DNA of 52,859 nt from a virus (taxonomy: Duplodnaviria > Heunggongvirae > Uroviricota > Caudoviricetes). Made by a program: the position numbers and the translations under genes. Below the pieces are notes generated by a model, which saw nothing but the letters and a program-made list of their open reading frames with translations, made no database searches and was not told the DNA's origin. Location: the IMG/VR virus record IMGVR_UViG_2909303794_000004, one strand, 5' to 3'. The first letter of the stretch is position 1, and each line of letters opens with the position of its first letter. Shown piece by piece: positions 1,335 through 52,859 of this stretch.

Positions 1335-1586
1335 TCAAGTAAGATGACGTCTTGGTCTCGCTGATGCCTGGCGCTCAATCCAGCGATCAATTTCTTCCAG
1401 GTTGTAAAAGCATGGGCTGTTATCCCATGGCATACCGTCATGAGCGACATGCTTATATTCCCTTCCTTCCATAAACGATTTTTCCCGGGCCTTTTTTAAC
1501 GTACCTTTTTTTATTCCTTTCAGCGCAATTAACTGCTCTTCGGATACCCATTTGCCGGGAGAGACAATCATGATTACTTCGCTCAT
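1335..1586 (-). CDS. excisionase-like small DNA-binding protein
   Basis: 83-aa ORF immediately upstream of int on the same strand, the canonical xis position; no motif confirmed. Confidence 0.55.
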   Translation of the reverse strand: MSEVIMIVSPGKWVSEEQLIALKGIKKGTLKKAREKSFMEGREYKHVAHDGMPWDNSPCFYNLEEIDRWIERQASARPRRHLT

Positions 1587-1658
1587 CGATTTCTTTATCT
1601 CTTACATTAGACGAGCGCCGGTTGCAGAATACCAGTCACAACCGGCGACAGTTGAACA

Positions 1659-4769: not shown

Positions 4770-4827
4770 AAAAAGGGCGGCAGAGCAGTCACGGAGTAAA
4801 ACTGATACCGCCAAACGTCACCAGAAA
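4770..4827 (-). ncRNA. dicF: DicF small regulatory RNA with intrinsic terminator
   Basis: minus-strand sequence UUUCUGGUGACGUUUGGCGGUAUCAGUUUUACUCCGUGACUGCUCUGCCGCCCUUUUU matches remembered DicF, including GC stem and U tail; located between ydfC and dicB. Confidence 0.8.
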
Positions 4828-5869: not shown

Positions 5870-6277
5870 TTATTTTATTGATTTATTTTTACGCGCTTTA
5901 AGCATTTCTTCGAAGAGTTTGTTGAAGTTTTCTACTCTTGCGCGCATTTCAGACAGCAAGGCTTCCTGCTCGGAAGATGGAAGAGCATCGAATAATTCGA
6001 TCAATTCTTTGTGGTTGGGAGTTAGCTCTGTTTCCACATGAAGTTCTTGTGCAGGCACTGGTGCCTTGTCTTCGTCACCAAACATTAGCCATGTAGGTGA
6101 GCACTTCAGAGCATCCGCTAAAGCAAACAATCGTTTTCCGACTGGCTGGGTTTCGTCTCTTTCCCATTGTGAAATTGTGACGTGAGCAACTCCAGCGAGG
6201 CGCGCGGCTTCTCGTTGTGTTAAGCGTAATTCTTTTCGTCGCGCCAGAACTCGCTGGCCCAGGGTTCTTGTATCCAT
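5870..6277 (-). CDS. dicA: HTH XRE-family prophage repressor DicA (135 aa)
   Basis: N-terminal HTH (LTQREAARLAGVAHVTISQWERDE) and C-terminal …EMRARVENFNKLFEEMLKARK closely resemble remembered K-12 DicA; divergent from a Cro-like gene. Confidence 0.9.
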   Translation of the reverse strand: MDTRTLGQRVLARRKELRLTQREAARLAGVAHVTISQWERDETQPVGKRLFALADALKCSPTWLMFGDEDKAPVPAQELHVETELTPNHKELIELFDALPSSEQEALLSEMRARVENFNKLFEEMLKARKNKSIK

Positions 6278-6326
6278 AGTTAGGTAATTCTAATTTTTCT
6301 TGACTTAGGTATCCCGCGCACAATAA

Positions 6327-6344
6327 TGTTAGAAAGGTCTAACA
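6327..6344. promoter_or_regulatory. operator-like palindrome TGTTAGA-N4-TCTAACA in the dicA/dicC divergent promoter region
   Basis: TGTTAGAAAGGTCTAACA between the dicA start (6277) and the dicC-like start (6359); same half-sites as the 5816-5833 site. Confidence 0.55.
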
Positions 6345-6358
6345 AGAGGGGGGCTTTG

Positions 6359-6584
6359 ATGCTTAAAGTTGACGCAATTACTTTTTTTGGCAGCAAAACA
6401 AAGCTTGCCAATGCCGCAGGAGTGAGGCTGGCAAGTGTTGCTGCTTGGGGGATACTTTCCTGAAGGTCGCGCGATGCGTCTACAGGAGGCATCTGGCGGG
6501 GAGCTTCAGTATGATCCCAAAGTTTATGATGAATATCGTAAGACGAAGCGGGCGGGGCGGTTGAACAATGAAAATCACTCCTGA
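6359..6584 (+). pseudogene. dicC: Cro-like regulator DicC homologue, reading frame broken at a G5 run
   Basis: N-terminal HTH part (MLKVDAITFFGSKTKLANAAGVRLASVAAWG) stops at TGA 6461-6463; C-terminal part (…PEGRAMRLQEASGGELQYDPKVYDEYRKTKRAGRLNNENHS) is in the +1 frame to 6584; frames overlap at GGGGG 6447-6451. Confidence 0.5.
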
Positions 6585-7089
6585 ACAGGCTCGTGAGGCT
6601 CTGGATGCCTGGATATGTCGACCAGGAATGACACAGGAGCAGGCGACGATATTAATCACTGAAGCATTCTGGGCTTTGAAAGAGCGCCCGAACATCGATG
6701 TTCAGCGTGTCACAGATGAAGGTGGTGCGGTTGATCAGCGAGCGCTTGGTGTTAATCGAGTGAAGATATTCGAACGCTGGAAGGCTATCGACACCAGGGA
6801 TAAGCGTGAAAAGTTCACGGCGCTAGTGCCTGCGATTATGGAGGCTATCCGGATTAGTGATTTCAGGTTGTATCGTGAAATTACTGACGGAAAAAGCATC
6901 ACGTGCATGATCGCCGGGTTAAACAAAGAATATGGCGATGTGGTGGAGTCCGGACTGCTTTTTGCTGATCCTGCCGTAGTGGATCGTGAAACTGACGAAC
7001 TTATAGAAAAAGCAATTGCTTTCAAGCTTGCGTATCGACAGCAATACCAACAAAAAGCTGGATGGAATTATGAGCCTTCTTTTTGCTGA
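6568..7089 (+). CDS. hypothetical early regulatory protein, possibly YdaT/CII-like
   Basis: 173-aa ORF directly after the Cro-like gene and before the replication gene, the cII position; family assignment is a guess from memory. Confidence 0.45.
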   Translation: MKITPEQAREALDAWICRPGMTQEQATILITEAFWALKERPNIDVQRVTDEGGAVDQRALGVNRVKIFERWKAIDTRDKREKFTALVPAIMEAIRISDFRLYREITDGKSITCMIAGLNKEYGDVVESGLLFADPAVVDRETDELIEKAIAFKLAYRQQYQQKAGWNYEPSFC

Positions 7090-7990
7090 ACGCCCACTGG
7101 TTATAAACACGCAGCTGGCAATGAAAATTGGCTTAAACGAAGCCATTGTTTTGCAACAACTGCACTACTGGTTGAGAGATACCAACTCCGGCATGGAATG
7201 TGATGGTGTTCGCTGGATTTATAACACAACGGAACAATGGCTGGAACAGTTCCCATTCTGGTCAGAGTCAACGTTAAAGCGCGCGTTTGCAAGTCTGAAA
7301 ACGCTGGGGCTTTTGCGTTGTGAAAAGCTCAATAAATCAAAGCGCGATATGACCAATTTCTACACGATCAACTATGGGAGCGAGCTTTTAGATGGTGGCA
7401 AATTGAGCGAATCCATCGGTTCAAAATGCGCCGCTCCATCAGGTCAAAATGACACGATGGAAGAGGTCAAAATGAAACGCTCCATTGGTTCAAAACGACC
7501 CAATGTCATCGGGTCAAAATGGCCTGATGATCTTACAGAGAATACAACAGAGATTACTACAGAGAATAAAAACACTTTTCGTCCGGAAGCTTCGCAACCG
7601 GACCCGCAGACGACTGAACAGGATTCTTTAACCCGGAACTCCGACGCGGTTGTGTTTAGTGCGAAAAAACGCCAGTGGGGTAGCAGGGAGGATTTGGCGT
7701 GTGCGCAGTGGATCTGGGGGCGGATCGTGGGTCTCTACGAACAGGCAGCCAGTGATGATGGCGAGATCATGCGACCAAAAGAGCCTAACTGGACTGCCTG
7801 GGCCAATGACGTGCGCACAATGCGGATGCTGGATGGCAGAAGCCACAGACAAATTTGCGAAATGTTTGGTCGGGTTCAGCGAGATCCATTCTGGGTAAAA
7901 AACATCATGAGCCCGTCAAAGCTCCGCGAAAAAAAAATGGGACGAACTGGTCATCCGCCTGGGACGTTCACCTGTACAGCGTTGTGTTAA
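7070..7990 (+). CDS. phage replication initiation protein (lambda O analogue) with origin iterons inside the gene
   Basis: 306-aa ORF in the O position; N-terminal HTH-like domain; central region encodes a repeated IGSK motif generated by iterons. Confidence 0.75.
   Translation: MSLLFAERPLVINTQLAMKIGLNEAIVLQQLHYWLRDTNSGMECDGVRWIYNTTEQWLEQFPFWSESTLKRAFASLKTLGLLRCEKLNKSKRDMTNFYTINYGSELLDGGKLSESIGSKCAAPSGQNDTMEEVKMKRSIGSKRPNVIGSKWPDDLTENTTEITTENKNTFRPEASQPDPQTTEQDSLTRNSDAVVFSAKKRQWGSREDLACAQWIWGRIVGLYEQAASDDGEIMRPKEPNWTAWANDVRTMRMLDGRSHRQICEMFGRVQRDPFWVKNIMSPSKLREKKMGRTGHPPGTFTCTALC
7411..7523 (+). repeat. candidate replication origin: five direct ~18-bp iterons (consensus TCCATCNGGTCAAAATG) at 23-24 bp spacing, followed by an A-rich tract
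   Basis: repeats at about 7411, 7435, 7458, 7480 and 7505 read directly; A-rich ACAGAGAATA-type segment at 7530-7575; same arrangement as lambda ori inside O. Confidence 0.6.
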
Positions 7991-8844: not shown

Positions 8845-8898
8845 TGAACCGCCCCGGGAATCCTGGAGACTAAACTCCCTGAGAAAGAGGTAAACAGG

Positions 8899-9225
8899 AT
8901 GACTAAAAATACACGTTTTTCCCCCGAGGTCCGTCAACGGGCAGTTCGTATGGTTCTGGAAAGTCAGGGCGAATATGACTCTCAATGGGCGGCAATTTGT
9001 TCCATTGCCCCAAAGATTGGCTGTACACCAGAGACTCTGCGTGTGTGGGTTCGTCAGCATGAGCGGGATACCGGGAGTGGTGATGGTGGACTCACCACCG
9101 CTGAACGTCAGCGTCTGAAAGAGCTGGAACGTGAAAATCGTGAACTGCGCCGCAGTAACGATATCCTTCGCCAGGCTTCCGCTTATTTTGCGAAGGCGGA
9201 GTTCGACCGCCTCTGGAAAAAATAA
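8899..9225 (+). CDS. IS3-family transposase OrfA (108 aa)
   Basis: [50 protein letters not shown]… matches remembered IS629 OrfA. Confidence 0.9.
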
Positions 9226-10112
9226 TGCCGCTGCTGGATAAGCTGCGTGAGCAGTACGGGGTCGGACCGGTATGCAGTGAACTGCATATTGCCCCGTCAA
9301 CGTATTACCACTGTCAGCAACAGCGACATCATCCTGATAAACGCAGTGCCCGTGCTCAGCGCGATGACTGGCTGAAGAGAGAGATACAGCGCGTATACGA
9401 TGAAAATCATCAGGTGTACGGTGTGCGTAAAGTCTGGCGCCAGTTGTTACGCGAAGGTATCAGGGTGGCCAGATGTACAGTGGCGCGCCTCATGGCGGTT
9501 ATGGGACTTGCCGGTGTTCTCCGGGGTAAAAAGGTCCGTACTACCGTCAGCCGGAAAGCCGTTTCCGCAGGCGACCGCGTAAACCGTCAGTTCGTGGCAG
9601 AACGTCCTGACCAGCTGTGGGTGGCTGATTTTACTTACGTCAGCACATGGCAGGGCTTCGTCTATGTGGCGTTCATCATTGATGTGTTTGCCGGATGTAT
9701 CGTGGGGTGGCGAGTCTCATCGTCTATGGAAACGACATTCGTGCTGGATGCACTGGAGCAGGCGTTGTGGGCCCGTCGGCCGTCCGGCACAGTCCATCAC
9801 AGTGATAAAGGTTCTCAGTATGTATCACTGGCCTATACGGAGCGACTAAAAGAAGCAAAACTGCTGGCATCAACAGGGAGTACAGGTGACTCGTATGACA
9901 ACGCGATGGCGGAGAGCATCAATGGTCTTTACAAAGCGGAGGTAATACACCGTAAGAGCTGGAAAAACCGTGCAGAAGTGGAACTGGCCACACTCACGTG
10001 GGTGGACTGGTATAACAATCGACGATTGCTGGGAAGGCTGGGTCATATCCCTCCGGCAGAAGCAGAAAAAGCTTATTATGCTTCCATCAGAAACGATGAT
10101 CTGGCAGCCTGA
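9225..10112 (+). CDS. IS3-family transposase OrfB (DDE domain)
   Basis: 295-aa ORF overlapping orfA in the -1 frame near an A-run, typical of IS3-family OrfAB. Confidence 0.9.
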   Translation: MPLLDKLREQYGVGPVCSELHIAPSTYYHCQQQRHHPDKRSARAQRDDWLKREIQRVYDENHQVYGVRKVWRQLLREGIRVARCTVARLMAVMGLAGVLRGKKVRTTVSRKAVSAGDRVNRQFVAERPDQLWVADFTYVSTWQGFVYVAFIIDVFAGCIVGWRVSSSMETTFVLDALEQALWARRPSGTVHHSDKGSQYVSLAYTERLKEAKLLASTGSTGDSYDNAMAESINGLYKAEVIHRKSWKNRAEVELATLTWVDWYNNRRLLGRLGHIPPAEAEKAYYASIRNDDLAA

Positions 10113-10778
10113 GTTCACAGATAAAACACTCTCCAGGAAAACCGGGGCGGTTCATTCTGATTTTTTAATGGAATGAAACGCAAATACCGGTAAGCCAGAT
10201 TCTGGCACTGACAGACAGAAAACCTGTTATCTGTCAACGAACAGGGAAAAAACGATAAAACCCACTGGATTATTTTTATGAAAGAGGCATCCAGTGAGTA
10301 GATTCGTAAGGCTACAGATACGTATATCTGAATAATTAAATTCAGTTCTGTAAATAAAATTTAATCCTTAACCGGATGGATTTCTGCACCCTCAGAACAT
10401 CAGGAGGCCGCCCGAAAGGGCGGTAGTGAAATGCGAAAGTTCAAAATTATTATTGAAACGGGAATAGCTGGTGGAGATTTTGAGGATGTATTCGAAGTGG
10501 ACGATGACGCAACACCTGAGGAAATTCATGACGGAGCATAAGAAATTTTCTTTAACTACTGCAATTACTCATACCACGAAATAAAAGACGATGAGGAAGA
10601 ACAAAGTGGCTGATTTTTGTTCAGCTAAATATAACATCAGTTTTGAAGAGCGGGATGAACTATTAATGGACTATGGTGAGTTACGCGGTGGAAGTGCTGC
10701 TGATGTCGAATCCTAGCGTGATGACTATGAAGCGGGAAAAACTCCGGTCGAAGCATATTGTGATGAGTGGGGCGATGA

Positions 10779-11500: not shown

Positions 11501-11855
11501 ATACAGCGAACTCCATTGGTTTAGTTGGATATTTACTGTGCTGGACAAAAACGGTTTGCGGGGAAATCTTAGTTAAGTAGAATGACTGCGGGTGCTTGAG
11601 GCTATCTGCCTCGGGCATGGACACCAACGGCAGATAGAGAAAAGCCCCAGTTAACATTACGCGTCCTGCAAGACGCTTAACATTAATCTGAGGCCAATTT
11701 CATGCTAGACACATGTAGGTTAGCCTCTTACGTGCCGAAAGGCACGGAGAAGCAGGCTATTGTTAACACCAAGCTGTAATGTCCCCTTTGAACCATTCTA
11801 AAATGTCCCCAGACAATTCTCTGGGGGATTTTTCATAATCAAAGAGACTGTTACG

Positions 11856-13692: not shown

Positions 13693-13771
13693 TAACAACT
13701 GTAAGCGTACAGCCTGAACCGTCTGGTCAGAATCTGACGAATTAGACAAAGTGGTGTCCACCAAATAAGTA

Positions 13772-14173
13772 GTGGGAACCAAAGTGTCAGATATGCAGAA
13801 AAATGTGACTCCCGGCAGGCGAAAAGGCTGCCCTAATTATCCTCCCGAATTTAAACAGCAGCTCGTTGCTGCCTCCTGTGAACCCGGGATATCCATCTCA
13901 AAACTTGCTCTTGAAAATGGCATTAACGCCAATCTGTTGTTCAAATGGCGACAACAATGGCGCGAGGGAAAGCTGCTATTACCTTCTTCAGAGAGCCCCC
14001 AGCTACTTCCTGTGACTCTCGATGCAGCTGCCGAACAGCCAGAATCGCTCGCAGAGGACCCGGAAACCCTCAGTATCAGCTGTGAGGTAACGTTCCGGCA
14101 CGGGACGCTCCGCTTCAATGGCAATGTCAGCGAAAAGCTCCTGACTCTGCTGATACAGGAACTGAAGCGATGA
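13772..14173 (+). CDS. IS66-family accessory protein (orf1)
   Basis: first ORF of the IS66-type three-gene set. Confidence 0.8.
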   Translation: MGTKVSDMQKNVTPGRRKGCPNYPPEFKQQLVAASCEPGISISKLALENGINANLLFKWRQQWREGKLLLPSSESPQLLPVTLDAAAEQPESLAEDPETLSISCEVTFRHGTLRFNGNVSEKLLTLLIQELKR

Positions 14174-14517
14174 TCCCGTTACCTTCCGGGACCAAAATTT
14201 GGCTGGTTGCCGGTATCACCGATATGAGAAATGGCTTCAACGGCCTGGCTGCGAAAGTACAGACGGCGCTGAAAGACGATCCCATGTCCGGCCATGTTTT
14301 CATTTTCCGGGGCCGCAGCGGCAGTCAGGTTAAACTGCTGTGGTCCACCGGTGACGGGCTGTGCCTCCTGACCAAACGGCTGGAGCGTGGGCGCTTCGCC
14401 TGGCCGTCAGCCCGTGATGGCAAAGTGTTCCTTACGCAGGCGCAGCTGGCGATGCTGCTGGAAGGTATCGACTGGCGACAGCCTAAGCGGCTGCTGACCT
14501 CCCTGACCATGCTGTAA
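14170..14517 (+). CDS. IS66-family accessory protein (orf2)
   Basis: 115-aa ORF overlapping orf1 by ATGA, typical of IS66. Confidence 0.85.
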
Positions 14518-14566
14518 ATCTCTTTATCCTGGTTGTCACAGAATAAGCCCGGTAAAATACGGGCTT

Positions 14567-16105
14567 ATGAACGACATCTCTTCTGACGACATCTTCCTGC
14601 TGAAACAGCGCCTGGCCGAACAGGAAGCGCTGATCCACGCCCTGCAGGAAAAGCTGAGCAACCGGGAGCGCGAAATAGACCATCTGCAGGCGCAGCTGGA
14701 TAAACTCCGCCGGATGAACTTCGGCAGTCGTTCCGAAAAAGTCTCCCGCCGTATCGCACAAATGGAAGCCGATCTGAACCGGCTTCAGAAAGAGAGCGAT
14801 ACGCTGACTGGTAGGGTGTATGACCCGGCAGTACAGCGTCCGTTGCATCAGACCCGCACCCGTAAGCCGTTCCCTGAATCACTACCCCGTGACGAAAAGC
14901 GACTGTTGCCTGCGGCGCCGTGCTGCCCGAACTGCGGCGGTTCACTGAGCTATCTGGGCGAGGATACCGCCGAACAGCTGGAGTTGATGCGTAGCGCCTT
15001 CCGGGTTATCCGGACGGTACGGGAAAAACATGCCTGTACTCAGTGCGATGCCATCGTGCAGGCACCTGCACCTTCGCGGCCCATCGAGCGGGGTATCGCC
15101 GGACCGGGGCTGCTGGCCCGCGTGCTGACCTCGAAGTATGCAGAGCACACCCCGCTGTATCGCCAGTCAGAAATATACGGCCGGCAAGGTGTGGAGCTGA
15201 GCCGTTCACTGCTGTCGGGCTGGGTGGATGCATGCTGCCGGCTGCTGTCTCCGCTGGAAGAGGCGCTTCATGGCTATGTCATGACTGACGGCAAACTCCA
15301 TGCCGATGATACCCCGGTCCAGGTACTGCTGCCGGGTAATAAGAAGACGAAGACCGGGCGGTTGTGGGCGTATGTTCGTGATGACCGCAATGCCGGGTCA
15401 GCGTTGGCACCTGCAGTGAGGTTCGCTTACAGCCCGGACAGAAAAGGCATCCATCCGCAGGCTCATCTTGCTTGCTTCAGCGGTGTGCTGCAAGCGGATG
15501 CGTACGCCGGGTTCAACGAGCTGTATCGCAATGGTGGGATAACGGAAGCTGCCTGCTGGGCTCATGCCCGCCGAAAGATCCACGATGTGCACGTCCGCAT
15601 CCCGTCAGCACTGACGGAAGAAGCCCTGGAGCAGATCGGTCAGTTGTACGCCATAGAGGCGGATATAAGGGGAATGCCGGCAGAGCAGCGGCTTGCTGAA
15701 CGTCAGCGAAAAACGAAACCGCTGTTGAAATCCCTGGAAAGCTGGTTGCGTGAAAAGATGAAGACCCTGTCGCGACACTCAGAGTTGGCGAAGGCGTTCG
15801 CGTACGCACTTAACCAGTGGCCGGCACTGACGTACTATGCGAACGATGGCTGGGTGGAAATCGACAACAACATCGCTGAAAATGCCCTGCGGGCGGTCAG
15901 TCTGGGTCGTAAAAACTTCCTGTTCTTCGGCTCTGACCATGGTGGTGAGCGGGGAGCGCTACTGTACAGCCTGATCGGGACGTGCAAACTGAATGACGTG
16001 GATCCAGAAAGCTACCTTCGCCATGTGCTTGGCGTCATAGCAGACTGGCCGGTCAACCGGGTCAGCGAACTGCTTCCGTGGCGCATAGCACTGCCAGCTG
16101 AATAA
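14567..16105 (+). CDS. IS66-family transposase (orf3)
   Basis: 512-aa ORF with N-terminal coiled-coil/leucine zipper and cysteine cluster (CPNCG…CTQCD), typical of IS66 transposases. Confidence 0.9.
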
Positions 16106-16142
16106 CACATCCCCGTCAATACGGCCCTCGCTGTACGCTTAC

Positions 16143-20917: not shown

Positions 20918-21217
20918 AAAAATTCCTTAATACTGATAACTTGGCGCACTATACACACGTTCCTGAAGAAAGCTATAGTTTTTTGATGGGGTTGAAGATG
21001 GCTGGATGTCTAAAATAAACATTGCTTCATATGTTCAACTATGCGTTAATGATTGCGTCGGTTTGAAGAACAGACGATATACGAAGTAGTTTACTAAAGC
21101 AGTTCTCATTTCAGGTGTTATTCACTTATTCCTTCTTTGAGTCTCTCCAATTAAGTACGAAGTCGTTTCTGTTATGCAAACCATTTATGCCGAAAGGCTC
21201 AAGTTAAGGAATGTAGA

Positions 21218-21433
21218 ATGTCAAATAAAATGACTGGTTTAGTAAAATGGTTTAACGCTGATAAAGGTTTCGGCTTTATTTCTCCTGTTGATGGTAGTAA
21301 AGATGTGTTTGTGCATTTTTCTGCGATTCAGAATGATAATTATCGAACCTTATTTGAAGGTCAAAAGGTTACCTTCTCTATAGAGAGTGGTGCTAAAGGT
21401 CCTGCAGCAGCAAATGTCATCATTACTGATTAA
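21218..21433 (+). CDS. cspB: cold-shock protein CspB (71 aa)
   Basis: [67 protein letters not shown]… near-identical to remembered CspB. Confidence 0.9.
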
Positions 21434-21714
21434 AATTCATCGCTCGTCTGTATACGATAACGAAGAAGGCTGATGCCTGAGTAGAGATACGGACAGAGTA
21501 GTGAATATTGGATCTCTTTAATAAAAAGTAAGGAGGTCCAATACATGAAACAATGGCTAGCATATTTGGCAAAATCTTAATCAGGAAAAGTATGCTAACC
21601 ATTGTGGTGAAGTGCAGGTTTGCTGCATGAATAGTTTTACAGCAGAAGCTAACTGCTGGCATGGCAAAACAAAGTGCGTAAGTGGATGACTCCCACAAAA
21701 AGCACCACAATCTC

Positions 21715-22832: not shown

Positions 22833-22874
22833 TGAACCGCCCCGGGTTTCCTGGAGAGTGTTTTATCTGTGAAC

Positions 22875-23765
22875 TCAGGCTGCCAGATCATCGTTTCCGA
22901 TGGAAGCATAATAAGCTTTTTCTGCTTCTGCCGGAGGAGTATGGCCCAGCCTTTCCAGCAATCGTCGATTGTTATACCAGTCCACCCACGTGAGTGTGGC
23001 CAGTTCCACTTCTGCACGGTTTTTCCAGCTCTTACGGTGTATTACCTCCGCTTTGTAAAGGCCATTGATGCTCTCCGCCATCGCGTTGTCATACGAGTCG
23101 CCTGTACTTCCTGTTGATGCCAGTAATCCGGCTTCCTTAAGCCGCTGTGTGTAGGCCAGCGATACATACTGAGAACCTTTATCACTGTGATGGACTGTGC
23201 CGGACGGTCGACGGGCCCATAACGCCTGCTCCAGAGCATCCAGCACAAATGTCGTTTCCATAGACGATGAGACCCGCCACCCCACGATGTATCCGGCAAA
23301 CACATCAATGATGAACGCCACATAGACGACCCCCTGCCATGTGCTGACGTAAGTAGAATCAGCCACCCACAACTGGTCAGGACGTTCTGCCACGAACTGA
23401 CGGTTTACGCGGTCGCCTGCGACAACGGCTTTCCGGCTGATGGTCGTACGGACCTTTTTACCACGGAGAACACCGGCAAGTCCCATAACCGCCATGAGAC
23501 GTGCCACAGTGCATCTGGCCACTCTGATACCTTCCCGTAACAACTGACGCCAGACTTTACGCACACCGTATACCTTGTGATTTTCATCGTATACGCGCTG
23601 TATCTCTTTCTTCAGCCAGTCATCGCGCTGCGCACGGGCACTGCGTTTATCCGGATGATGTCGCTGTTGCTGACAGTGGTAATACGTTGACGGGGCAATA
23701 TGCAGTTCGCTGCATAGCGGTCCGACCCCGTACTGCTCACGCAGCTTATCCAGCAGTGGCATCAT
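22875..23765 (-). CDS. IS3-family transposase OrfB
   Basis: 296-aa ORF homologous to 9225-10112. Confidence 0.9.
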
Positions 23766-24088
23766 TTTTTCCAGAGGCGGTCGAACTCCGCCTTCGCAAA
23801 ATAAGCGGAAGCCTGGCGAAGGATATCGTTACTGCGGCGCAGTTCACGATTTTCACGTTCCAGCTCTTTCAGACGCTGACGTTCAGCGGTGGTGAGCCCG
23901 CCATCACCGCCTCCGGTATCCCGCTCATGCTGGCGTACCCAGACACGCAGAGTCTCCGGTGTACAGCCAATCTTTGGGGCAATGGAACAAATTGCCGCCC
24001 ACTGTGAGTCATATTCGCCCTGACTTTCCAGAACCATACGAATCGCCCTCTGACGGACTTCGGGGGAAAAACGAGTATTTTTAGTCAT
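23762..24088 (-). CDS. IS3-family transposase OrfA
   Basis: 108-aa ORF, 2 substitutions relative to copy 1. Confidence 0.9.
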
Positions 24089-24145
24089 CCTGTTTACCTC
24101 TTTCTCAGGGAGTTTAGTCTCCAGGATTCCCGGGGCGGTTCACAA

Positions 24146-25055
<910 letters not shown>

Positions 25056-25416
25056 GGTAATATTAAATCGGAACATTTACATCGCGGAATGTAAAATTTG
25101 AATAAAAAGGACTCTTCCATGAGCCAAAATTCCTGAAATCTTAAGGGTAAGATAAAAGGTCTTAATCAGAATGACACGTTTTATTAATAAATAAAGCTAT
25201 TCTTTCATTGCTGTGTTTTTCTTTACAAAAGTAATCCTTGCTATGGGTGGTTAATCATGCGTTAATGGTGTTCTGGTTTGTTACAAATTTATCTGAAGCA
25301 GTCATTGTTATAATTTTATTATTTGTACCTCTTGAGATTTCCTTGTTGGTTTTTCTCTCTGATATTTTTTTCGGACCATTCTGCCCAAGGGCTAATTTCT
25401 TCAAAAGGTAATAATT

Positions 25417-25629
25417 ATGTCTAACAAAATGACTGGTTTAGTGAAATGGTTTAACCCTGAAAAAGGTTTTGGTTTCATCACGCCGAAAGATGGCAGCAAA
25501 GATGTGTTTGTCCATTTCTCAGCAATTCAGAGCAACGATTTCAAAACATTAACTGAGAATCAGGAAGTTGAATTTGGTATTGAGAACGGACCTAAAGGTC
25601 CTGCCGCTGTTCATGTAGTGGCGCTTTGA
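25417..25629 (+). CDS. cspI: cold-shock protein CspI (70 aa)
   Basis: [70 protein letters not shown] matches remembered CspI. Confidence 0.9.
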
Positions 25630-25835
25630 GGTAGACAATATTACAAACCATATTCACTTTAGATGCCCGTGTTGTCATGGTTCCCAGTATAGAACATCAT
25701 CTTTTGATGTTTCTGACATGAATCCTTTCGGGGCAAAATGTATCTTTTGTAAATCAATGATGATTACATTTGATAATATTTCACAATACTTAAATGCCAG
25801 CCGTCTGTCGTTGGATTTAAAAAAGTGAAAATGAA

Positions 25836-43097: not shown

Positions 43098-46000
43098 ATG
43101 GGTAAAGGAAGCAGTAAGGGGCATACCCCGCGCGAAGCGAAGGACAACCTGAAGTCCACGCAGTTGCTGAGTGTGATCGATGCCATCAGCGAAGGGCCGG
43201 TTGAAGGTCCGGTGGATGGATTAAAAAGCGTGCTGCTGAACAGTACGCCGGTGCTGGACACTGAGGGGAATACCAACATCTCCGGTGTCACGGTGGTGTT
43301 CCGTGCCGGTGAGCAGGAGCAGACACCGCCGGAGGGGTTTGAATCCTCCGGCTCCGAGACGGTGCTGGGTACGGAAGTGAAATATGACACGCCGATCACC
43401 CGCACCATTACGTCTGCAAACATCGACCGTCTGCGCTTTACCTTCGGTGTACAGGCACTGGTGGAAACCACCTCAAAGGGTGACAGGAATCCGTCGGAAG
43501 TCCGTCTGCTGGTTCAGATACAACGTAACGGTGGCTGGGTGACGGAAAAAGACATCACCATTAAGGGCAAAACCACCTCGCAGTATCTGGCCTCGGTGGT
43601 GGTGGATAACCTGCCGCCGCGCCCGTTTAATATCCGGATGCGCAGGATGACGCCGGACAGCACCACAGACCAGCTGCAGAACAAAACGCTCTGGTCGTCA
43701 TACACCGAAATTATCGATGTGAAACAGTGCTACCCGAACACGGCACTGGTCGGCGTGCAGGTGGATTCGGAGCAGTTCGGCAGCCAGCAGGTGAGCCGTA
43801 ATTATCATCTGCGCGGGCGCATTCTGCAGGTGCCGTCGAACTATAACCCGCAGACGCGGCAATACAGCGGTATCTGGGACGGAACGTTTAAGCCAGCATA
43901 CAGCAACAACATGGCCTGGTGTCTGTGGGATATGCTGACCCATCCGCGCTACGGCATGGGGAAACGTCTTGGTGCGGCGGATGTGGACAAATGGGCGCTG
44001 TATGTCATCGGCCAGCATTGCGATCAGTCGGTGCCGGACGGTTTTGGCGGCACGGAGCCGCGCATCACCTGTAATGCGTACCTGACCACACAGCGCAAGG
44101 CGTGGGATGTGCTCAGTGATTTCTGCTCTGCGATGCGCTGTATGCCGGTATGGAACGGGCAGACGCTGACGTTCGTGCAGGACCGACCGTCGGATAAGGT
44201 GTGGACCTATAACCGCAGTAATGTGGTGATGCCGGATGATGGTGCGCCGTTCCGCTACAGCTTCAGCGCCCTGAAGGACCGCCATAATGCCGTTGAGGTG
44301 AACTGGATTGACCCGAATAACGGCTGGGAGACGGCGACAGAGCTTGTGGAGGACACGCAGGCCATTGCCCGTTACGGTCGTAACGTCACGAAGATGGATG
44401 CTTTTGGCTGTACCAGCCGGGGGCAGGCACACCGCGCCGGGCTGTGGCTGATTAAAACAGAACTGCTGGAAACGCAGACCGTGGATTTCAGCGTCGGCGC
44501 AGAAGGGCTTCGCCATGTACCGGGCGATGTCATTGAAATCTGCGATGATGACTATGCCGGTATCCGCACCGGCGGGCGCGTGCTGGCGGTAAACAGCCAG
44601 ACCCGGACGCTGACGCTCGACCGTGAAATCACGCTGCCATCCTCCGGTACCACGCTGATAAGCCTGGTTGACGGAAGTGGCAATCCGGTCAGCGTGGAGG
44701 TTCAGTCCGTCACCGACGGCGTGAAGGTGAAAGTGAGCCGTGTTCCTGACGGCGTTGCTGAATACAGCGTGTGGGGGCTGAAGCTGCCGACGCTGCGCCA
44801 GCGCCTGTTCCGCTGCGTGAGTATCCGTGAGAACGACGACGGCACGTATGCCATCACCGCCGTGCAGCATGTACCGGAAAAAGAGGCCATCGTGGATAAC
44901 GGGGCGCACTTTGACGGCGACCAGAGCGGCACGGTGAATGGTGTCACGCCGCCAGCGGTGCAGCACCTGACTGCCGAAGTCACCGCAGACAGCGGGGAAT
45001 ATCAGGTGCTGGCGCGCTGGGACACGCCGAAGGTGGTGAAGGGGGTGAGCTTTATGCTTCGCCTGACCGTGGCAGCGGATGACGGCAGTGAGCGGCTGGT
45101 CAGCACGGCCCGGACGACGGAAACCACATACCGCTTCACGCAACTGGCGCTGGGACGGTACACGCTGACAGTCCGGGCGGTAAATGCGTGGGGACAGCAG
45201 GGCGATCCGGCGTCGGTATCGTTCAGGATTGCCGCACCGGTAGCACCGTCGCGGATTGAGCTGACGCCGGGCTATTTTCAGATAACTGCCACGCCGCATC
45301 TTGCGGTTTATGATCCGACGGTACAGTTTGAGTTCTGGTTCTCGGAAACGCGGATTACCGATATCAGGCAGGTTGAAACCACAGCCCGCTACCTTGGCGC
45401 GGGGCTGTACTGGATAGCCGCCAGTATCAATATCAAACCGGGCCATGATTATTACTTTTATATCCGCAGTGTGAACACCGTTGGCAAATCGGCATTCGTG
45501 GAGGCCGTCGGTCGGGCGAGCGATGATGCGGAAGGTTACCTGGATTTTTTCAAAGGCAAGATAACCGAATCCCATCTCGGTAAAGAGCTGCTGGAAAAAG
45601 TTGATCTGACGGAGGATAACGCCAGCAGACTGGATGAGTTTTCGAAAGAGTGGAAGGACGCTAACGATAAATGGAATGCCATGTGGGGCGTCAAAATTGA
45701 GCAGACCAAAGACGGCAAACATTATGTCGCGGGTATTGGCCTCAGCATGGAGGACACGGAGGAAGGCAAGCTGAGCCAGTTTCTGATTGCCGCTAACCGT
45801 ATCGCGTTTATTGACCCGGCAAACGGGAATGAAACGCCGATGTTTGTGGCGCAGGGCAACCAGATATTCATGAACGACGTGTTCCTGAAGCGCCTGACAG
45901 CCCCCACCATTACCAGCGGTGGCAGTCCTCCGGTATTTTCCCTGACATCAGACGGAAAGCTGACCGCTAAAAATGCGGATATCAGTGGCAGTGTGAATGC

Positions 46001-46395
46001 GAACTCAGGAACGCTCAACAATGTCACGATTAACCAGAACTGTACGATTAAGGGCATGCTGGAGGCGACCCAGGTCAGAGGGGATTTCGTTAAAGCTGTA
46101 TCAAAAGCCTTCCCGAAAAAAGTCGGTACGTGGGGTAACACGGAAACACCAAACGGGACGGTTACAGTCACCATCAGCGATGATCATAACTTTGACCGCC
46201 AGATTATTATTCCGCCCATTATTTTTAACGGTATAGCGTATGACGATCCGGGGAGCGGAAATAACCCAGGAGGCACGCGATACACGGGTTATGGTTTTGA
46301 AGTTCGCAAAAACGGCGTATTAATCGCATCCAGAGAAACTAAAGGGGCCATTCCCGGTAGTTACAGTGCAGTTATTGATATGCCTAGTGGTGGTG
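43098..46395 (+). pseudogene. J: tail tip/host-specificity protein gpJ-like, 5' part (1099 codons), interrupted by IS1
   Basis: lambda J-like N-terminus ([29 protein letters not shown]…); frame runs into the IS1 left end and meets a stop inside it at 46398-46400. Confidence 0.85.
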
Positions 46396-46450
46396 GGTGA
46401 TGCTGCCAACTTACTGATTTAGTGTATGATGGTGTTTTTGAGGTGCTCCA

Positions 46451-46726
46451 GTGGCTTCTGTTTCTATCAGCTGTCCCTCCTGTTCAGCTACTGACGGGGT
46501 GGTGCGTAACGGCAAAAGCACCGCCGGACATCAGCGCTATCTCTGCTCTCACTGCCGTAAAACATGGCAACTGCAGTTCACTTACACCGCTTCTCAACCC
46601 GGTACGCACCAGAAAATCATTGATATGGCCATGAATGGCGTTGGATGCCGGGCAACAGCCCGCATTATGGGCGTTGGCCTCAACACGATTTTACGTCACT
46701 TAAAAAACTCAGGCCGCAGTCGGTAA
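46451..46726 (+). CDS. insA: IS1 InsA
   Basis: [43 protein letters not shown]… matches remembered InsA. Confidence 0.95.
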
Positions 46727-47148
46727 CCTCGCGCATACAGCCGGGCAGTGACGTCATCGTCTGCGCGGAAATGGACGAACAGTGGGGCTATGTCGGGGCT
46801 AAATCGTGCCAGCGCTGGCTGTTTTACGCGTATGACAGGCTCCGGAAGACGGTTGTTGCGCACGTATTCGGTGAACGCACGATGGCGACGCTGGGGCGTC
46901 TTATGAGCCTGCTGTCACCCTTTGACGTGGTGATATGGATGACGGATGGCTGGCCGCTGTATGAATCCCGCCTGAAGGGAAAGCTGCACGTAATCAGCAA
47001 GCGATATACGCAGCGAATTGAGCGGCATAACCTGAATCTGAGGCAGCACCTGGCACGGCTGGGACGGAAGTCGCTGTCGTTCTCAAAATCGGTGGAGCTG
47101 CATGACAAAGTCATCGGGCATTATCTGAACATAAAACACTATCAATAA
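46645..47148 (+). CDS. insB: IS1 InsB frame (expressed as InsAB' by -1 frameshift)
   Basis: 167-aa ORF in the -1 frame overlapping insA. Confidence 0.9.
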
Positions 47149-47172
47149 GTTGGAGTCATTACCGTGGTGGTG

Positions 47173-47288
47173 GTAGCGTCACTCTGGAGTTTAAGATTTT
47201 CCAGAAAGGCAATCAGGGGGCAGGCAATATCACCGACTGTACGGTGATTGTGACCAAAAAAGCGGCTTCCGGCATCAGTATTCGTTGA
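47173..47288 (+). pseudogene. J: gpJ 3' fragment (last 37 codons) downstream of IS1
   Basis: in frame with 43098-46395 after removing IS1 and one duplication copy (…SVTLEFKIFQKGNQGAGNITDCTVIVTKKAASGISIR). Confidence 0.7.
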
Positions 47289-47358
47289 AATATTTATAAC
47301 CCCAATAAATGGCGTCAGGAATGACGCCTTTTTTATTGCAGAAAAGCGAGAGGTAATT

Positions 47359-47958
47359 ATGCGTAAAGTTTGTGCAGCCATTTTGTCCGCAGCCATTTGT
47401 CTGGCCGTATCCGGTGCGCCTGCATGGGCGTCTGAACATCAGTCCACGCTGAGCGCGGGGTATCTTCATGCCCGGACCAACGTTCCCGGCAGTGATGATC
47501 TGAACGGGATTAACGTGAAATATCGTTATGAGTTTACGGATACGCTGGGGCTGGTGACGTCATTCAGCTATGCAGGAGACAAGAATCGCCAGCTGACCCG
47601 TTACAGCGATACCCGCTGGCATGAAGATTCCGTGCGTAACCGCTGGTTCAGCGTGATGGCGGGGCCGTCTGTGCGCGTGAATGAATGGTTCAGCGCGTAT
47701 GCGATGGCGGGTGTGGCTTACAGCCGTGTGTCGACTTTTTCCGGGGATTATATCCGCGTAACTGACAATAAGGGGAAAACGCACGATGTGCTGACCGGAA
47801 GTGATGACGGTCGCCACAGCAACACGTCTCTGGCGTGGGGGACTGGCGTGCAGTTTAACCCGACCGAGTCCGTGGCCATTGATGTCGCTTATGAAGGTTC
47901 CGGCAGTGGCGACTGGCGCACTGACGGTTTCATCGTGGGTGTCGGTTATAAGTTCTGA
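47359..47958 (+). CDS. lom: Lom outer-membrane protein (Ail/Lom family)
   Basis: 199-aa ORF with signal peptide and beta-barrel-like alternating pattern ending in a C-terminal aromatic residue (…GVGYKF); lambda lom position after J. Confidence 0.85.
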   Translation: MRKVCAAILSAAICLAVSGAPAWASEHQSTLSAGYLHARTNVPGSDDLNGINVKYRYEFTDTLGLVTSFSYAGDKNRQLTRYSDTRWHEDSVRNRWFSVMAGPSVRVNEWFSAYAMAGVAYSRVSTFSGDYIRVTDNKGKTHDVLTGSDDGRHSNTSLAWGTGVQFNPTESVAIDVAYEGSGSGDWRTDGFIVGVGYKF

Positions 47959-47983
47959 TTAGCCAGGTAACACAGTGTTATGA

Positions 47984-48013
47984 CAGCCCGCCGTTTCAGG
48001 CGGGCTTTTTTGT
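47984..48013 (+). terminator. intrinsic terminator after lom
   Basis: CAGCCCGCCGTTTCAGGCGGGCTTTTTT. Confidence 0.7.
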
Positions 48014-48016
48014 GGG

Positions 48017-51000
48017 GTGAATATGGCAGTAAAGATTTCAGGTGTACTGAAAGACGGCACAGGAAAACCGGTACAGAACTGCACAATCCAGCTGAAAGCA
48101 AAACGTAACAGCACCACGGTGGTGGTGAACACGCTGGCCTCAGAAAATCCGGATGAGGCCGGGCGTTACAGCATGGACGTTGAGTACGGTCAGTATAGCG
48201 TTATTCTGTTGGTGGAAGGATTCCCGCCGTCACATGCCGGGACCATCACCGTGTATGAAGATTCCCGACCCGGTACGCTGAATGATTTTCTCGGTGCCAT
48301 GACGGAGGATGATGCCCGTCCGGAGGCTCTGCGCCGTTTTGAACTGATGGTGGAAGAGGTGGCGCGTAACGCGTCCGCGGTGGCACAGAACACGGCAGCC
48401 GCGAAGAAGTCAGCCAGTGATGCCGGCACATCTGCCAGTGAGGCGGCAACCCATGCGACTGATGCTGCAGGCTCAGCGCGTGCAGCCAGCACGTCAGCCG
48501 GACAGGCCGCGACGTCGGCTCAGGAGGCGTCTTCCAGCGCAGGAACAGCATCAACAAAGGCCACAGAAGCATCAAAAAGTGCTGCCGCTGCAGAGTCCTC
48601 AAAAAGCGCGGCGGCCACCAGTGCCGGTGCCGCGAAAACGTCAGAAACGAATGCTGCAGCGTCACAAAAATCAGCAGCCACTTCTGCATCCACTGCGACG
48701 ACGAAAGCGTCAGAAGCCGCCACTTCAGCCAGAGATGCGGCGGCCTCCAAAGAGGCGGCAAAATCATCAGAAACGAACGCCTCCACAAGCGCCAGCAGTG
48801 CAGCCTCCTCGGCAACGGCGGCAGGAAATTCCGTGAAGGCGGCAAAAACGTCCGAGACGAATGCTAAGTCTTCTGAAACGGCAGCGGAACAGAGCGCCTC
48901 AGCTGCGGCAGACTCTGAGACAGCAGCTGCATCATCGGCCCGTGAGGCGTCCATTAAGGCAGAGGAGGCAGCAGTCAGTGCCACCGCCGCCGGAAAATCG
49001 GCAGAAAGCGCCGCATCATCCGCTTCAACAGCCACAACGAAGGCTGGCGAAGCCACTGAACAGGCCAGCGCAGCAGCGAGGTCTGCTTCCGCAGCGAAGA
49101 CATCCGAAACGAACGCGAAAGCGTCGGAAACCAGCGCAGAATCCTCAAAAACGGCTGCCGCATCGTCCGCCAGTTCGGCGGCGTCATCGGCATCATCTGC
49201 GTCTGCTTCAAAAGATGAGGCGACCAGACAGGCGTCAGCAGCGAAGGGTAGCGCCACGACGGCATCCACGAAGGCGACAGAGGCAGCTGGCAGTGCGACG
49301 GCAGCAGCTCAGAGCAAAAGTACGGCGGAATCTGCAGCAACGCGCGCTGAGACAGCGGCAAAACGGGCAGAGGATATTGCATCCGCCGTGGCGCTTGAGG
49401 ATGCGAGCACGACGAAAAAGGGGATAGTACAGCTCAGCAGTGCGACCAACAGCACTTCCGAGTCACTGGCGGCAACGCCAAAAGCCGTTAAGGCCGCGTA
49501 TGACCTGGCTAACGGGAAATACACCGCACAGGATGCAACGACAGCACAGAAAGGGATAATCCAGCTAAGCAGCGCGACCAACAGCACGTCTGAAACGCTG
49601 GCGGCAACGCCAAAGGCAGTAAAAGCAGCCAATGACAATGCTGAGAAACGTCTGCAGAAAGATCAGAACGGTGCGGATATCCCTGGCAAAGACACCTTTA
49701 CGAAAAATATTGGTGCCTGCCGTGCCTTCGGTGGGTCAGTAAGCACAACAACAGGAAACTGGACGACTGCACAGTTTATCGAGTGGCTGGATTCTCAGGG
49801 AGCATTTAACCATCCATACTGGATGTGCAAGGGTTCCTGGTCTTATGGCAATAATAAAATCATTACTGATACTGGCTGCGGTAATATTCATCTCGCCGGA
49901 GCTGTCATTGAAGTAATGGGGATAAAGTCAGCGATGACGATCCGCATTACCACACCGACCACCTCCACTGGTGGTGGAACAACTAACGCCCAGTTTACCT
50001 ATATTAATCACGGAACAGATTATTCACCTGGCTGGCGAAGGGACTATAACTCCAGAAATAAGCCAACGGCATCAGAGATCGGGGCGTTACCGTCAGGTGG
50101 AACAGCAGTATCATCAGTTAATCTGTCTTCAAAAGGTCGGGTAACCGCGCTGACAGACAATACGCAGGGGGCAACAGGTCTTGAGTTATACGAGGTGTAT
50201 AACAACGGATATCCAACAGCGTATGGAAATATCATTCACCTGAAAGGGATGACAGCCGTTGGCGAAGGTGAGTTACTCATCGGCTGGAGTGGTACAAGCG
50301 GTGCTCATGCTCCGGCATTTATTCGTTCACGACGGGATACGACCGACGCAAACTGGTCGCCGTGGGCGCAGCTTTACACCTCGGCTCATCCTCCTGCAGA
50401 GTTTTATCCAGTCGGTGCACCAATCCCGTGGCCATCAGATACCGTTCCGTCTGGTTATGTCCTGATGCAGGGGCAGACTTTTGACAAATCTGCTTACCCG
50501 AAACTTGCAGCCGCTTATCCGTCAGGCGTGATCCCTGATATGCGTGGCTGGACGATTAAGGGCAAGCCCGCCAGTGATCGAGCCGTATTGTCTCAGGAAC
50601 AGGACGGCATTAAATCACACACCCACAGCGCCAGCGTATCCAGTACGGATTTGGGGACGAAAACCACATCGTCGTTTGATTACGGCACTAAATCCACGAA
50701 TAACACTGGTGCGCATACCCATAGTGTTAGCGGTACGGCTGCTTCAGCCGGTGCACATACCCATTCGATGACATTTGTTTCAGGTGGTTCCAGTGGTGCT
50801 CCGGGAAGTGGATCACCTGATTATTCTAAATACAGTGTTAACACTTCTTCTGCAGGCGCTCATACGCACTCTGTATCGGGTACTGCTGCAAGCGCAGGTG
50901 CACACGCACATACTGTCGGTATTGGTGCTCATACGCACTCCGTTGCGATTGGTTCACATGGACATACCATCACCGTTAACGCTGCTGGTAACGCGGAAAA

Positions 51001-51046
51001 CACCGTCAAAAACATCGCATTTAACTATATTGTGAGGCTTGCATAA
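48017..51046 (+). CDS. stf: side tail fibre protein Stf (1009 aa)
   Basis: N-terminus [26 protein letters not shown]… resembles lambda Stf; long Ala/Ser/Thr-rich repeats; C-terminal HxH-rich motifs ([17 protein letters not shown]…). Confidence 0.9.
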
Positions 51047-51621
51047 TGGCATTCAGAATGAGTGAACAACCACGGACCATAAAAATTTATAATCTGCTGG
51101 CCGGAACTAATGAATTTATTGGTGAAGGTGACGCATATATTCCGCCTCATACAGGTCTGCCAGCAAACAGTATCGATATTGCACCGCCAGATATTCCGGC
51201 AGGCTTCGTGGCTGTTTTCAACAGTGATGAGGCATCGTGGCATCTCGTTGAAGATCATCGGGGTAAAACGGTTTATGACGTGGCTTCCGGCGACGCGTTA
51301 TTTATTTCTGAACTCGGTCCGTTACCGGAAAATGTTACCTGGTTATCGCCGGGAGGGGAATATCAGAAGTGGAACGGCACAGCCTGGGTGAAGGATACGG
51401 AAGCAGAAAAACTGTTCCGGATCCGGGAGGCGGAAGAAACAAAAAACAGCCTGATGCAGGTAGCCAGTGAGCATATTGCGCCGCTTCAGGATGCTGCAGA
51501 TCTGGAAATTGCAACGGAGGAAGAAATCTCGTTGCTGGAAGCATGGAAAAAGTATCGGGTATTGCTGAACCGTGTTGATACGTCAACTGCACAGGATATT
51601 GAATGGCCAGCACTGCCGTAG
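51046..51621 (+). CDS. tfa: tail fibre assembly protein Tfa (191 aa)
   Basis: start overlaps the stf stop; size and position as lambda tfa. Confidence 0.85.
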
Positions 51622-51718
51622 GGTAAAACATATAAATTCTATAATTAGATGTATCTTTCCATTTACGGCAAGGAAGGTGGCTTGGAAGACGTAAAGCATC
51701 TCACACCGAGATTATTTT

Positions 51719-52309
51719 TTATATGTCAGGTGTCTGAAGTTTTGCTTTGGCTCTTAAAATGGTTTGCCGCGAGGTTTTGAATTCCCGGGCAATGGCACTT
51801 ATACTTACACCTGACTTAATTCGTTCGAATACCACCTGTTTCTGTTCTTCATTTAACACAGGTGGTCGACCAAAACGTTTCCCTGCGCCCCGGGCTCTTA
51901 CTATCCCGGAATGAGTGCGTTCAAGTAAAAGGTCTCGTTCAAATTCAGCGACTGCTGAAATTACTTGCATCATCATTTTTCCTGTTGGACTGGTCAGGTC
52001 AATGCCCCCCAATGCTAAGCAATGCACTCTGATACCTGTTTCGGTCAGTTGTTCCACTGTTTTCCTGATATCCATTGCATTACAACCAAGGCGATCCAGT
52101 TTTGTCACAATCAATTGATCACCACATTTCAGGCGAGCAAGCAACCGGTTAAAACCAGGACGCTCACTGGTTGCTGCTGAGCCGCTAATGTGTTCTTCGA
52201 TTATTTGCTGAGGTTTGATTTTAAAACCTGCACTTTCGATTTCCCGGCGTTGATTTTCGGTGGTCTGATCCAGCGTTGATATCCGACAGTAAGCAAAAAT
52301 TCGAGACAT
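51719..52309 (-). CDS. pin: serine recombinase, DNA invertase (Pin/Hin/Gin family, 196 aa)
   Basis: [20 protein letters not shown]… with catalytic-Ser context (CRISTLDQ) and C-terminal HTH; K-12 pinQ position. Confidence 0.9.
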
Positions 52310-52625
52310 AGTGAGACTCTATACGAAATTGGTGTTCATATCATAATGCATCTCAGAAAATAATTTTGATTATTTTTGTGCATATTTGTATGTACACGTT
52401 CGAAAATAAACGAATGCGTATGCAACCCCGTAATTTTGGTGAGACCCAAAATCGATTTTGTGAAAAATGGCTTTAACTCGGTTTGTTTTTCGAGTTCCGG
52501 GCGGACTCAAGGAAGAAGAATAGTGTTGCGTGTTATTTTAACCAGATTTCAAGTTGTTTGGTCGTGGAAAAGTGGAGCAAAATGTTGTTAAAGTGGAAAA
52601 ATGATAAAAAAGTAAGTTTATTATA

Positions 52626-52859
52626 TTACATTTTACCATTTAAATTTTGGTTGTCTTTAAGAACTGATATCGCTGTTTGTAATAATTCTTTGTTATCCAG
52701 CCATGATTTTTTCTTTATGTTTCCTTCAATGTAATCAAGCAATGTTCTGGTATTGATAGGTCTTCCCTGTTTTGCTACTTCCACTACAGCATCCCCTAGG
52801 ATAATTCTTACTTCAGGAAGCTGCGCAGGGAACCACTTTAGGGTGTCTTTTGATTTCAT
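52626..52859 (-). CDS. ydfK: YdfK/YnaE-family small cold-shock-induced protein (77 aa)
   Basis: MKSKDTLKWFPAQLPEVRIILGDAVVEVAKQGRPINTRTLLDYIEGNIKK… ; the ATG is the last three bases of the window. Confidence 0.7.
   Translation of the reverse strand: MKSKDTLKWFPAQLPEVRIILGDAVVEVAKQGRPINTRTLLDYIEGNIKKKSWLDNKELLQTAISVLKDNQNLNGKM

Follow-up and report, generated by a model that had tools for sequence, protein, structure and literature searches.

We find that gene J, which encodes the tip attachment protein or central tail fibre of a lambdoid prophage on IMG/VR record IMGVR_UViG_2909303794_000004 (Caudoviricetes), is an IS1-interrupted pseudogene. The window, meaning the whole stretch of 52,859 nucleotides that was analysed, holds a full-length Qin-type prophage with a complete head and tail module, and the insertion sequence (IS) sits near the 3′ end of J. 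We hold it very probable that an IS1A-like element transposed into an intact J of the phage 434 type, that the event was recent and private to this lineage, that it truncated the protein's receptor-binding domain (RBD), and that it is one of four IS hits in the prophage. The features of the interrupted gene are listed below.

43098-46400, + strand: gene J as now encoded, tip attachment protein cut to 1100 aa, codons 1-1099 native (open reading frame (ORF), translation)
46387-46395, no strand: left copy of the target-site duplication GTGGTGGTG (direct reading, pattern search)
46396-47163, + strand: IS1 (IS1A-like), 768 bp (length, ends, 765/768 against K-12 IS1A; matches annotated IS1A-family transposase)
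46396-46418, + strand: IS1 left terminal inverted repeat (IRL), inside which a sigma-70-like consensus match begins (46403-46430)
46451-46726, + strand: insA, 91 aa, zinc ribbon and helix-turn-helix (ORF, translation, PF03811, PF12759)
46645-47148, + strand: insB frame, 167-aa ORF, DDE_Tnp_IS1 (ORF, translation, Pfam)
46700-46708, + strand: A6C frameshift motif TTAAAAAAC (position read; role from general IS1 knowledge)
47141-47163, + strand: IS1 right terminal inverted repeat (IRR) (ends read)
47164-47172, no strand: right copy of the target-site duplication GTGGTGGTG (direct reading, pattern search)
47173-47288, + strand: orphaned 3′ end of J, comprising the final 2 nt of codon 1100 followed by codons 1101-1137 and TGA (direct reading, translation)

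A complete IS1 element lies within J

The element spans 46396-47163 on the + strand, exactly 768 bp by both direct reading and scripted coordinates, with its transposase genes co-oriented with J. Its left end is GGTGATGCTGCCAACTTACTGAT and its right end is ATCAATAAGTTGGAGTCATTACC; the terminal inverted repeats (GGTGATGCTGCCAACTTACTGAT and GGTAATGACTCCAACTTATTGAT) are 23 bp long and imperfect, with 18 of the 23 positions matching. InsA (91 aa, element frame +2) matches Zn_ribbon_InsA and HTH_Tnp_IS1 (PF03811, PF12759), and the 167-aa InsB ORF in the -1 frame is open throughout, with a DDE_Tnp_IS1 (PF03400) match across the full profile. In IS1 the InsAB′ transposase is produced by a -1 programmed frameshift at the A6C motif, here TTAAAAAAC, and homologous IS1 copies in RefSeq carry the annotation "programmed frameshift". 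In length, inverted repeats, insA/insB with A6C, 9-bp target duplication and near-identity to reference IS1, the element is a member of the IS1 family. The 23-nt left-end motif occurs once in the window (0.00 expected in shuffles), and a composite transposon or second IS1 is ruled out by this single IS1 end motif.

Both flanks of the element carry the 9-bp direct repeat GTGGTGGTG (46387-46395 and 47164-47172). Since base 1 of IS1 is also G, the repeat can be read as 10 bp, giving a 10-nt BLAST overlap; with canonical IS1A ends it is 9 bp. The 9-mer occurs 4 times in the window versus 0.43 expected and is single-copy in the empty sites of relatives. Automated repeat listing skips runs of 1-3-base units, and this repeat was established by direct reading and pattern search.

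The insertion point can be placed within a single codon. Position 46394 is the last of codon 1099, and the element divides codon 1100, leaving its G at 46395 and its GT at 47173-47174. The target run AGT GGT GGT GGT encodes Ser-Gly-Gly-Gly, residues 1097-1100 of J. With the element in place codon 1100 reads GGG, which retains Gly, and the next codon is a TGA contributed by IS1 bases 3-5. The truncated J has lost residues 1101-1137 with zero foreign residues appended.

Joining 43098-46395 to 47173-47288 gives 3414 nt and 1137 codons with zero internal stops, the same 1137 aa as the intact J proteins of Escherichia coli 98206 and phage 434. The reconstructed protein matches six Pfam domains, all above cut-offs (FNIII-A_GpJ, Phage-tail_3, Ig_J, Ig_J_second, Phage_Tail_Tip and Ig_GpJ_C). 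The full C-terminal RBD lies in one frame only after in-silico removal of IS1, the ORF as it stands stopping after residue 1100. The preliminary description of this DNA had reported a 768-bp IS1 with canonical ends and a 9-bp duplication on both sides, inserted after J codon 1099 with the last 37 codons continuing in frame downstream, and our reading of the locus agrees with it on all of these points.

Expression of the orphaned 37 codons was considered and ruled out, as there is no in-frame start upstream; the sole + strand ORF near the remnant (47164-47247, 27 aa) is in a different frame. We also observe a 674-aa ORF antisense to J (43698-45722, - strand). Lambda J has a comparable antisense ORF of 564 aa (1436-3130 of locus L004), and the ORF here probably just reflects codon composition and does not represent a gene.

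The empty site is common in E. coli and the filled site is private

Flanks were compared after taking out IS1 together with one copy of the repeat. All 8 of the closest related loci, which encode an identical 1007-aa side-fibre protein, contain the rejoined 120-mer exactly, as does one further locus (L003). A 1200-nt rejoined query matches intact J-lom junctions in a single piece at up to 99.5% identity, and rejoined window 43713-52859 has zero mismatches to CP057364.1 (locus L006) and to locus L012. J differs from that of CP057364.1 at 12 nucleotides, 11 of them synonymous and one causing G170D. All 12 lie within J nt 351-615 (window 43448-43712, 265 nt), which suggests a small, old recombination tract, not scattered mutation or post-insertion decay.

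The preliminary description had proposed checking for polymorphism of the insertion in the population. Among 5,426 complete E. coli genomes, 1,889 have the empty site at ≥80% coverage; the filled site, sought by junction-spanning megablast at the same coverage, is present in 0. The left-junction 40-mer of the filled site, GATATGCCTAGTGGTGGTGGGTGATGCTGCCAACTTACTG, has 0 matches in GTDB species representatives and 0 in JGI metagenomes, and exact look-up of the 1100-aa truncated J protein returned no match. Because relatives hold the exact empty site and the filled site is absent from the collections searched, the insertion is, on these sequence comparisons, a simple transposition that is recent and private to the lineage within those collections.

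Three other histories of the locus were weighed against these data. Most E. coli and Shigella genomes hold several IS1 copies, with a median of 12 places per complete E. coli genome, and repeats of this kind cause mis-joins, so a copy misplaced in J by assembly has to be considered, all the more as the filled site is found in no other genome searched. Against such an artefact, both junctions are exact at canonical IS1 ends and the 9-bp duplication is perfect and is single-copy in the empty site. Precise ends with a duplication are the signature of real transposition and are not made by mis-assembly, which leaves an artefact very unlikely.

Alternatively, the two flanks could derive from different J genes or prophages brought together by IS1 recombination, or by a deletion or inversion next to the element. 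Deletions are among the known effects of IS1, and several lambdoid prophages with similar J genes are common in E. coli (median 2, up to 13 places per genome). The flanks nevertheless rejoin to the exact empty site, 43713-52859 is 100% identical to one contiguous locus elsewhere, and had two different insertions recombined, the 9-bp duplication would no longer be present on both sides. The probability that we leave to such a rearrangement is close to nil.

It is also highly improbable that J was already a decaying pseudogene when IS1 arrived, so that the insertion had no functional effect of its own. The other IS lesions in the prophage could be taken to favour prior decay, and J may by then have been under relaxed selection; against it, the reconstructed J has no stop or frameshift, is 1 aa from intact relatives, and is identical over its 3′ 2.8 kb. 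Altogether, flank identity and the empty- and filled-site results exclude a rearrangement and a prior pseudogene for practical purposes and argue strongly for a simple IS1 transposition into an intact gene.

The IS1 allele has transposed repeatedly

The IS1A of E. coli K-12 (NC_000913.3 19796-20563) is the same as this copy at 765 of 768 nt. It shares the 768-bp length, identical terminal sequences, insA, insB, the A6C site and the 9-bp target duplication; compared with it, our copy has three substitutions, at IS positions 412, 444 and 486. The changes include an Arg-to-Cys replacement in InsB, which turns the reference motif, which we take to be KSRQRW, into KSCQRW. In the gene index this InsB form is rare (29 blocks).

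The element is identical over 768/768 nt to seven copies at different loci in E. coli 2017.06.04CC (NZ_AP025209.2), at least 4 of which have their own 9-bp duplications. Seven identical copies at different loci, at least 4 with their own duplications, indicate that this IS1 allele has transposed repeatedly. They are also an indirect sign that this copy is itself an active, transposition-competent IS1A-like element. E. coli 2017.06.04CC is a Vietnamese human isolate in which the KSCQRW variant is present in at least seven identical copies; the prophage host and this strain may be related or may have shared a common IS1 donor.

We also found IS1 elements in the same region of other prophages. 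In E. coli TUM13064, gpJ carries an IS1 (6002-6769 of locus L002) with its own 9-bp duplication, CTCATGCCG, leaving a J 3′ remnant of 231 nt versus 116 nt here, and lom carries ISEc12. In E. coli VE-V10-F, an IS1 lies in lom (6585-7352 of locus L001) with its own 9-bp duplication, GTTTAACCC. The IS1 alleles of TUM13064 and VE-V10-F have 29 and 4 differences, respectively. Positions and alleles both differ from ours, and these insertions are separate events. A further J gene, in GCA_050541765.1 (1853-5266 of locus L010), has a frameshift.

The interrupted J is of the phage 434 type

The surroundings of J are lambda-like, in the order tape measure, M, L, K, I, J, lom, side fibre and fibre assembly genes. 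The preliminary description had suggested alignment of the rebuilt protein to J homologues as its critical check. The protein passes this check: its length, 1137 aa, equals that of intact J, and its overall identity is 98% to the J proteins of E. coli 98206 and 434 and 90% to lambda J. Residues 1-960 are 97-98% identical to lambda, 434 and 98206 J. Over RBD residues 1001-1137 the match to 98206 is complete (100%), with identities of 97% for 434 and only 34% for lambda, and the last 177 residues as a whole are 100% identical to 98206 J.

Phages 434 and lambda h434 are among the best matches in phage nucleotide records (96%). Their J is likewise 1137 aa, and the order J, terminator, lom is the same. 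Compared with 434 J, the gene here is interrupted after codon 1099 and has four substitutions in the specificity region, three of which fall in the orphaned 37 codons. Lambda J (NP_040600; PDB 8iyk, 8xcj, 8xck) shares the domain architecture and synteny, at 97% identity over residues 1-960, but its RBD aligns at 34% identity with indels, and lambda J binds LamB. Lambda carrying the 434 tail-fibre gene in place of J binds OmpC, the receptor of 434 (PMC3509688). Because the RBD is 97% identical to that of 434 J, which directs OmpC adsorption, the receptor of this J type is probably OmpC and not LamB. A LamB-type receptor was dropped in favour of the 434/OmpC type on the basis of these RBD identities (34% to lambda, 97% to 434).

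The insertion removes about a quarter of the RBD

The Pfam domain Ig_GpJ_C, which corresponds to the RBD, covers residues 1001-1136, and a cut after residue 1100 removes 37 of its ~137 residues (~27%). The preliminary description had stated that the receptor-binding C-terminus is separated from the protein; the last 37 codons are indeed cut off, but the RBD is split internally and not separated whole. By alignment, lost residues 1101-1137 are equivalent to lambda J residues 1092-1132, and the segment aligns to parts of the RBD that are resolved in the structures of lambda J (8xcj, 8iyk) and A8 gpJ (9wca). The specificity region of lambda J is 960-1132, and the OmpF host shift depends on residue 1107 (PMC6646904). 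The lost segment, being equivalent to lambda 1092-1132, therefore lies inside the specificity region and covers residue 1107. The gpJ RBD is immunoglobulin (Ig)-like, its bottom loops insert into the receptor, and RBD-receptor binding triggers tail opening in lambda (PMC11101478). Loss of roughly a quarter of such a domain would very probably abolish receptor binding. Folding of the truncated J as a single sequence with AlphaFold2 gave a pLDDT (predicted local distance difference test) of 32, too low for use.

The locus is best explained by one active IS1A-like copy that entered, near its 3′ end, a J gene that was intact and looked functional, in a full-length Qin-type prophage, and that duplicated 9 bp at the AGT GGT GGT GGT run on insertion. 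The TGA at the IS1 left end, directly after codon 1100, leaves the prophage encoding a J without residues 1101-1137. The truncated RBD would most likely be unable to fold or to bind its receptor (probably OmpC), and any tails made would be expected to fail at host recognition or at the trigger for DNA ejection. As IS1 is flanked by 9-bp repeats, rare precise excision could restore J.

An unlikely alternative is that the truncated J is still functional or that particles adsorb all the same, either because the RBD tolerates the loss of 37 residues or because infection proceeds via the side tail fibres. The first 100 RBD residues and all of the remaining J are retained, and the genes stf and tfa are intact downstream, with a fibre protein identical to that of relatives. 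To our knowledge, side fibres do not replace J. Against a functional product stands the size and position of the loss, ~27% of a compact Ig-like domain at positions aligning with resolved lambda and A8 gpJ RBD residues and including the specificity-critical residue 1107 of lambda (PMC6646904), together with the dependence of lambda tail opening on RBD-receptor binding (PMC11101478). Side fibres speed adsorption in Ur-lambda (PMC12617516).

Some points weigh against our account as a whole. The side tail fibre and assembly genes are intact, and some adsorption through the side fibre is conceivable. We infer the non-function of the truncated J from its sequence. The word "recent" denotes sequence identity to relatives and not a dated phylogeny.

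We also considered whether the truncation could be put to use, giving tails or particles that adsorb by the side tail fibre (Stf) only, or whether J::IS1 could work as a switch that is reversed when IS1 is precisely excised across the (GTG)3 repeats. Nothing here supports either idea, and we regard both as very doubtful. If one were true, the locus would encode a host-controlled tail or a tail of altered specificity, and not mere decay.

The genes downstream of J are intact

The region between J and the right part of the prophage retains the following features.

47311-47335, + strand: terminator-like hairpin and T-run between J and lom (phage 434 annotation has a terminator in the same place)
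47359-47958, + strand: lom (Ail/Lom outer-membrane protein), intact (ORF, Pfam)
48023-51046, + strand: side tail fibre gene, 1007 aa, intact (identical protein in relatives with uninterrupted J)
51046-51621, + strand: tail fibre assembly protein gene, 191 aa, intact (ORF, Pfam)

The distal side tail fibre region (48865-51500) diverges from that of E. coli 98206 (1007 versus 1101 aa) with patchy alignment, which is the usual fibre-tip mosaicism.

Four IS elements interrupt the prophage

The gene content of the prophage is typical of its kind. It includes integrase, exo, dicB, dicA/dicC, the DicF small RNA (sRNA), relBE, hokD/sok, ydfU, ydfT, cspF/cspB, essD, ydfR, rrrQ, rzpQ and cspI, lysis genes among them, and pin and ydfK at the right end. 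It is co-linear at 98-99.9% with annotated prophages. The cryptic prophage Qin of E. coli K-12 and full-length Qin-type prophages such as those of E. coli 98206 and JP538 share this content, with pin and ydfK at the right end and, in relatives, also ydfJ. Unlike the copy here, K-12 Qin presumably lacks structural genes. The head and tail ORFs, from position 26 kb to J, are otherwise co-linear with relatives.

Rfam places DicF sRNA at 4775-4826 (- strand), the sok antitoxin RNA next to hokD at 11590-11761 (+ strand), cspA-type thermoregulator leaders at 21057-21449 and 25272-25656 (both + strand; cspB and cspI homologues), and "IS009" at 51389-51587 (+ strand) inside the tail-fibre assembly gene. 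All five matches are typical of Qin-type prophages. At the dicA/dicC-like immunity region, ~500 bp (5951-6456) has no alignment to the JP538 prophage, which is elsewhere 98-99% identical; this segment may be a different repressor or immunity allele.

Relative to intact relatives we observe three further IS elements, so that the prophage carries four IS insertions in total.

8848-10154, + strand: IS1203/IS629-like element, ALIL pseudoknot at 9180-9296, near the 3′ end of an early-region class I S-adenosylmethionine (SAM)-dependent methyltransferase gene, relative to JP538
13702-16142: ISEc8 (IS66 family: tnpA, tnpB and a 512-aa tnpC), in a flxA-like gene, 8-bp duplication TAACAACT
22835-24140, - strand: second IS1203/IS629-like element, IS3 family, ~1.3 kb, ends TGAACCGCCCCGGG, ALIL frameshift pseudoknot at 23691-23807

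JP538 has an ISEc8 copy at another place that matches this one at 99.4% identity. The element at 22835-24140 splits the endolysin gene rrrQ ~115-120 nt past its start; its ends, TGAACCGCCCCGGG, we take to be IS629-like, and annotation assigns related copies to the IS1203 family. Of the three other insertions, the two whose junctions were looked for, ISEc8 and the one in rrrQ, are missing from all 5,426 complete E. coli genomes. Only two contigs encode the exact TerL protein of the prophage; the lysozyme gene is intact in each of them, and they do not extend to J.

The preliminary description had expected non-adsorbing particles. From the J lesion alone this would be a reasonable consequence. 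Taken as a whole, the prophage would probably release no particles; because the endolysin gene is split and two further IS elements have inserted, particle release is doubtful and non-adsorption would be partly moot. The four lesions themselves are read directly from the sequence, and they would amount to a stepwise, IS-driven inactivation of the prophage at the level of phenotype.

Significance of the J::IS1 allele

The insertion is real, was rightly interpreted, and is ordinary prophage decay. IS1, the lambda and 434 J proteins and IS-mediated prophage inactivation are all textbook-known, and the anatomy seen here falls within the IS1 and J families. For annotation, J should be recorded as an IS1-interrupted pseudogene, 47173-47288 as its 3′ remnant, and the prophage as defective. 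The IS1-J junction is a potential strain-specific marker. In this allele a 434-type RBD has also naturally lost its 37 C-terminal residues without a scar, and the allele could serve to probe how much of the domain OmpC recognition needs. Four private IS insertions, including two in late genes, make the prophage a tidy case of stepwise IS-driven inactivation.

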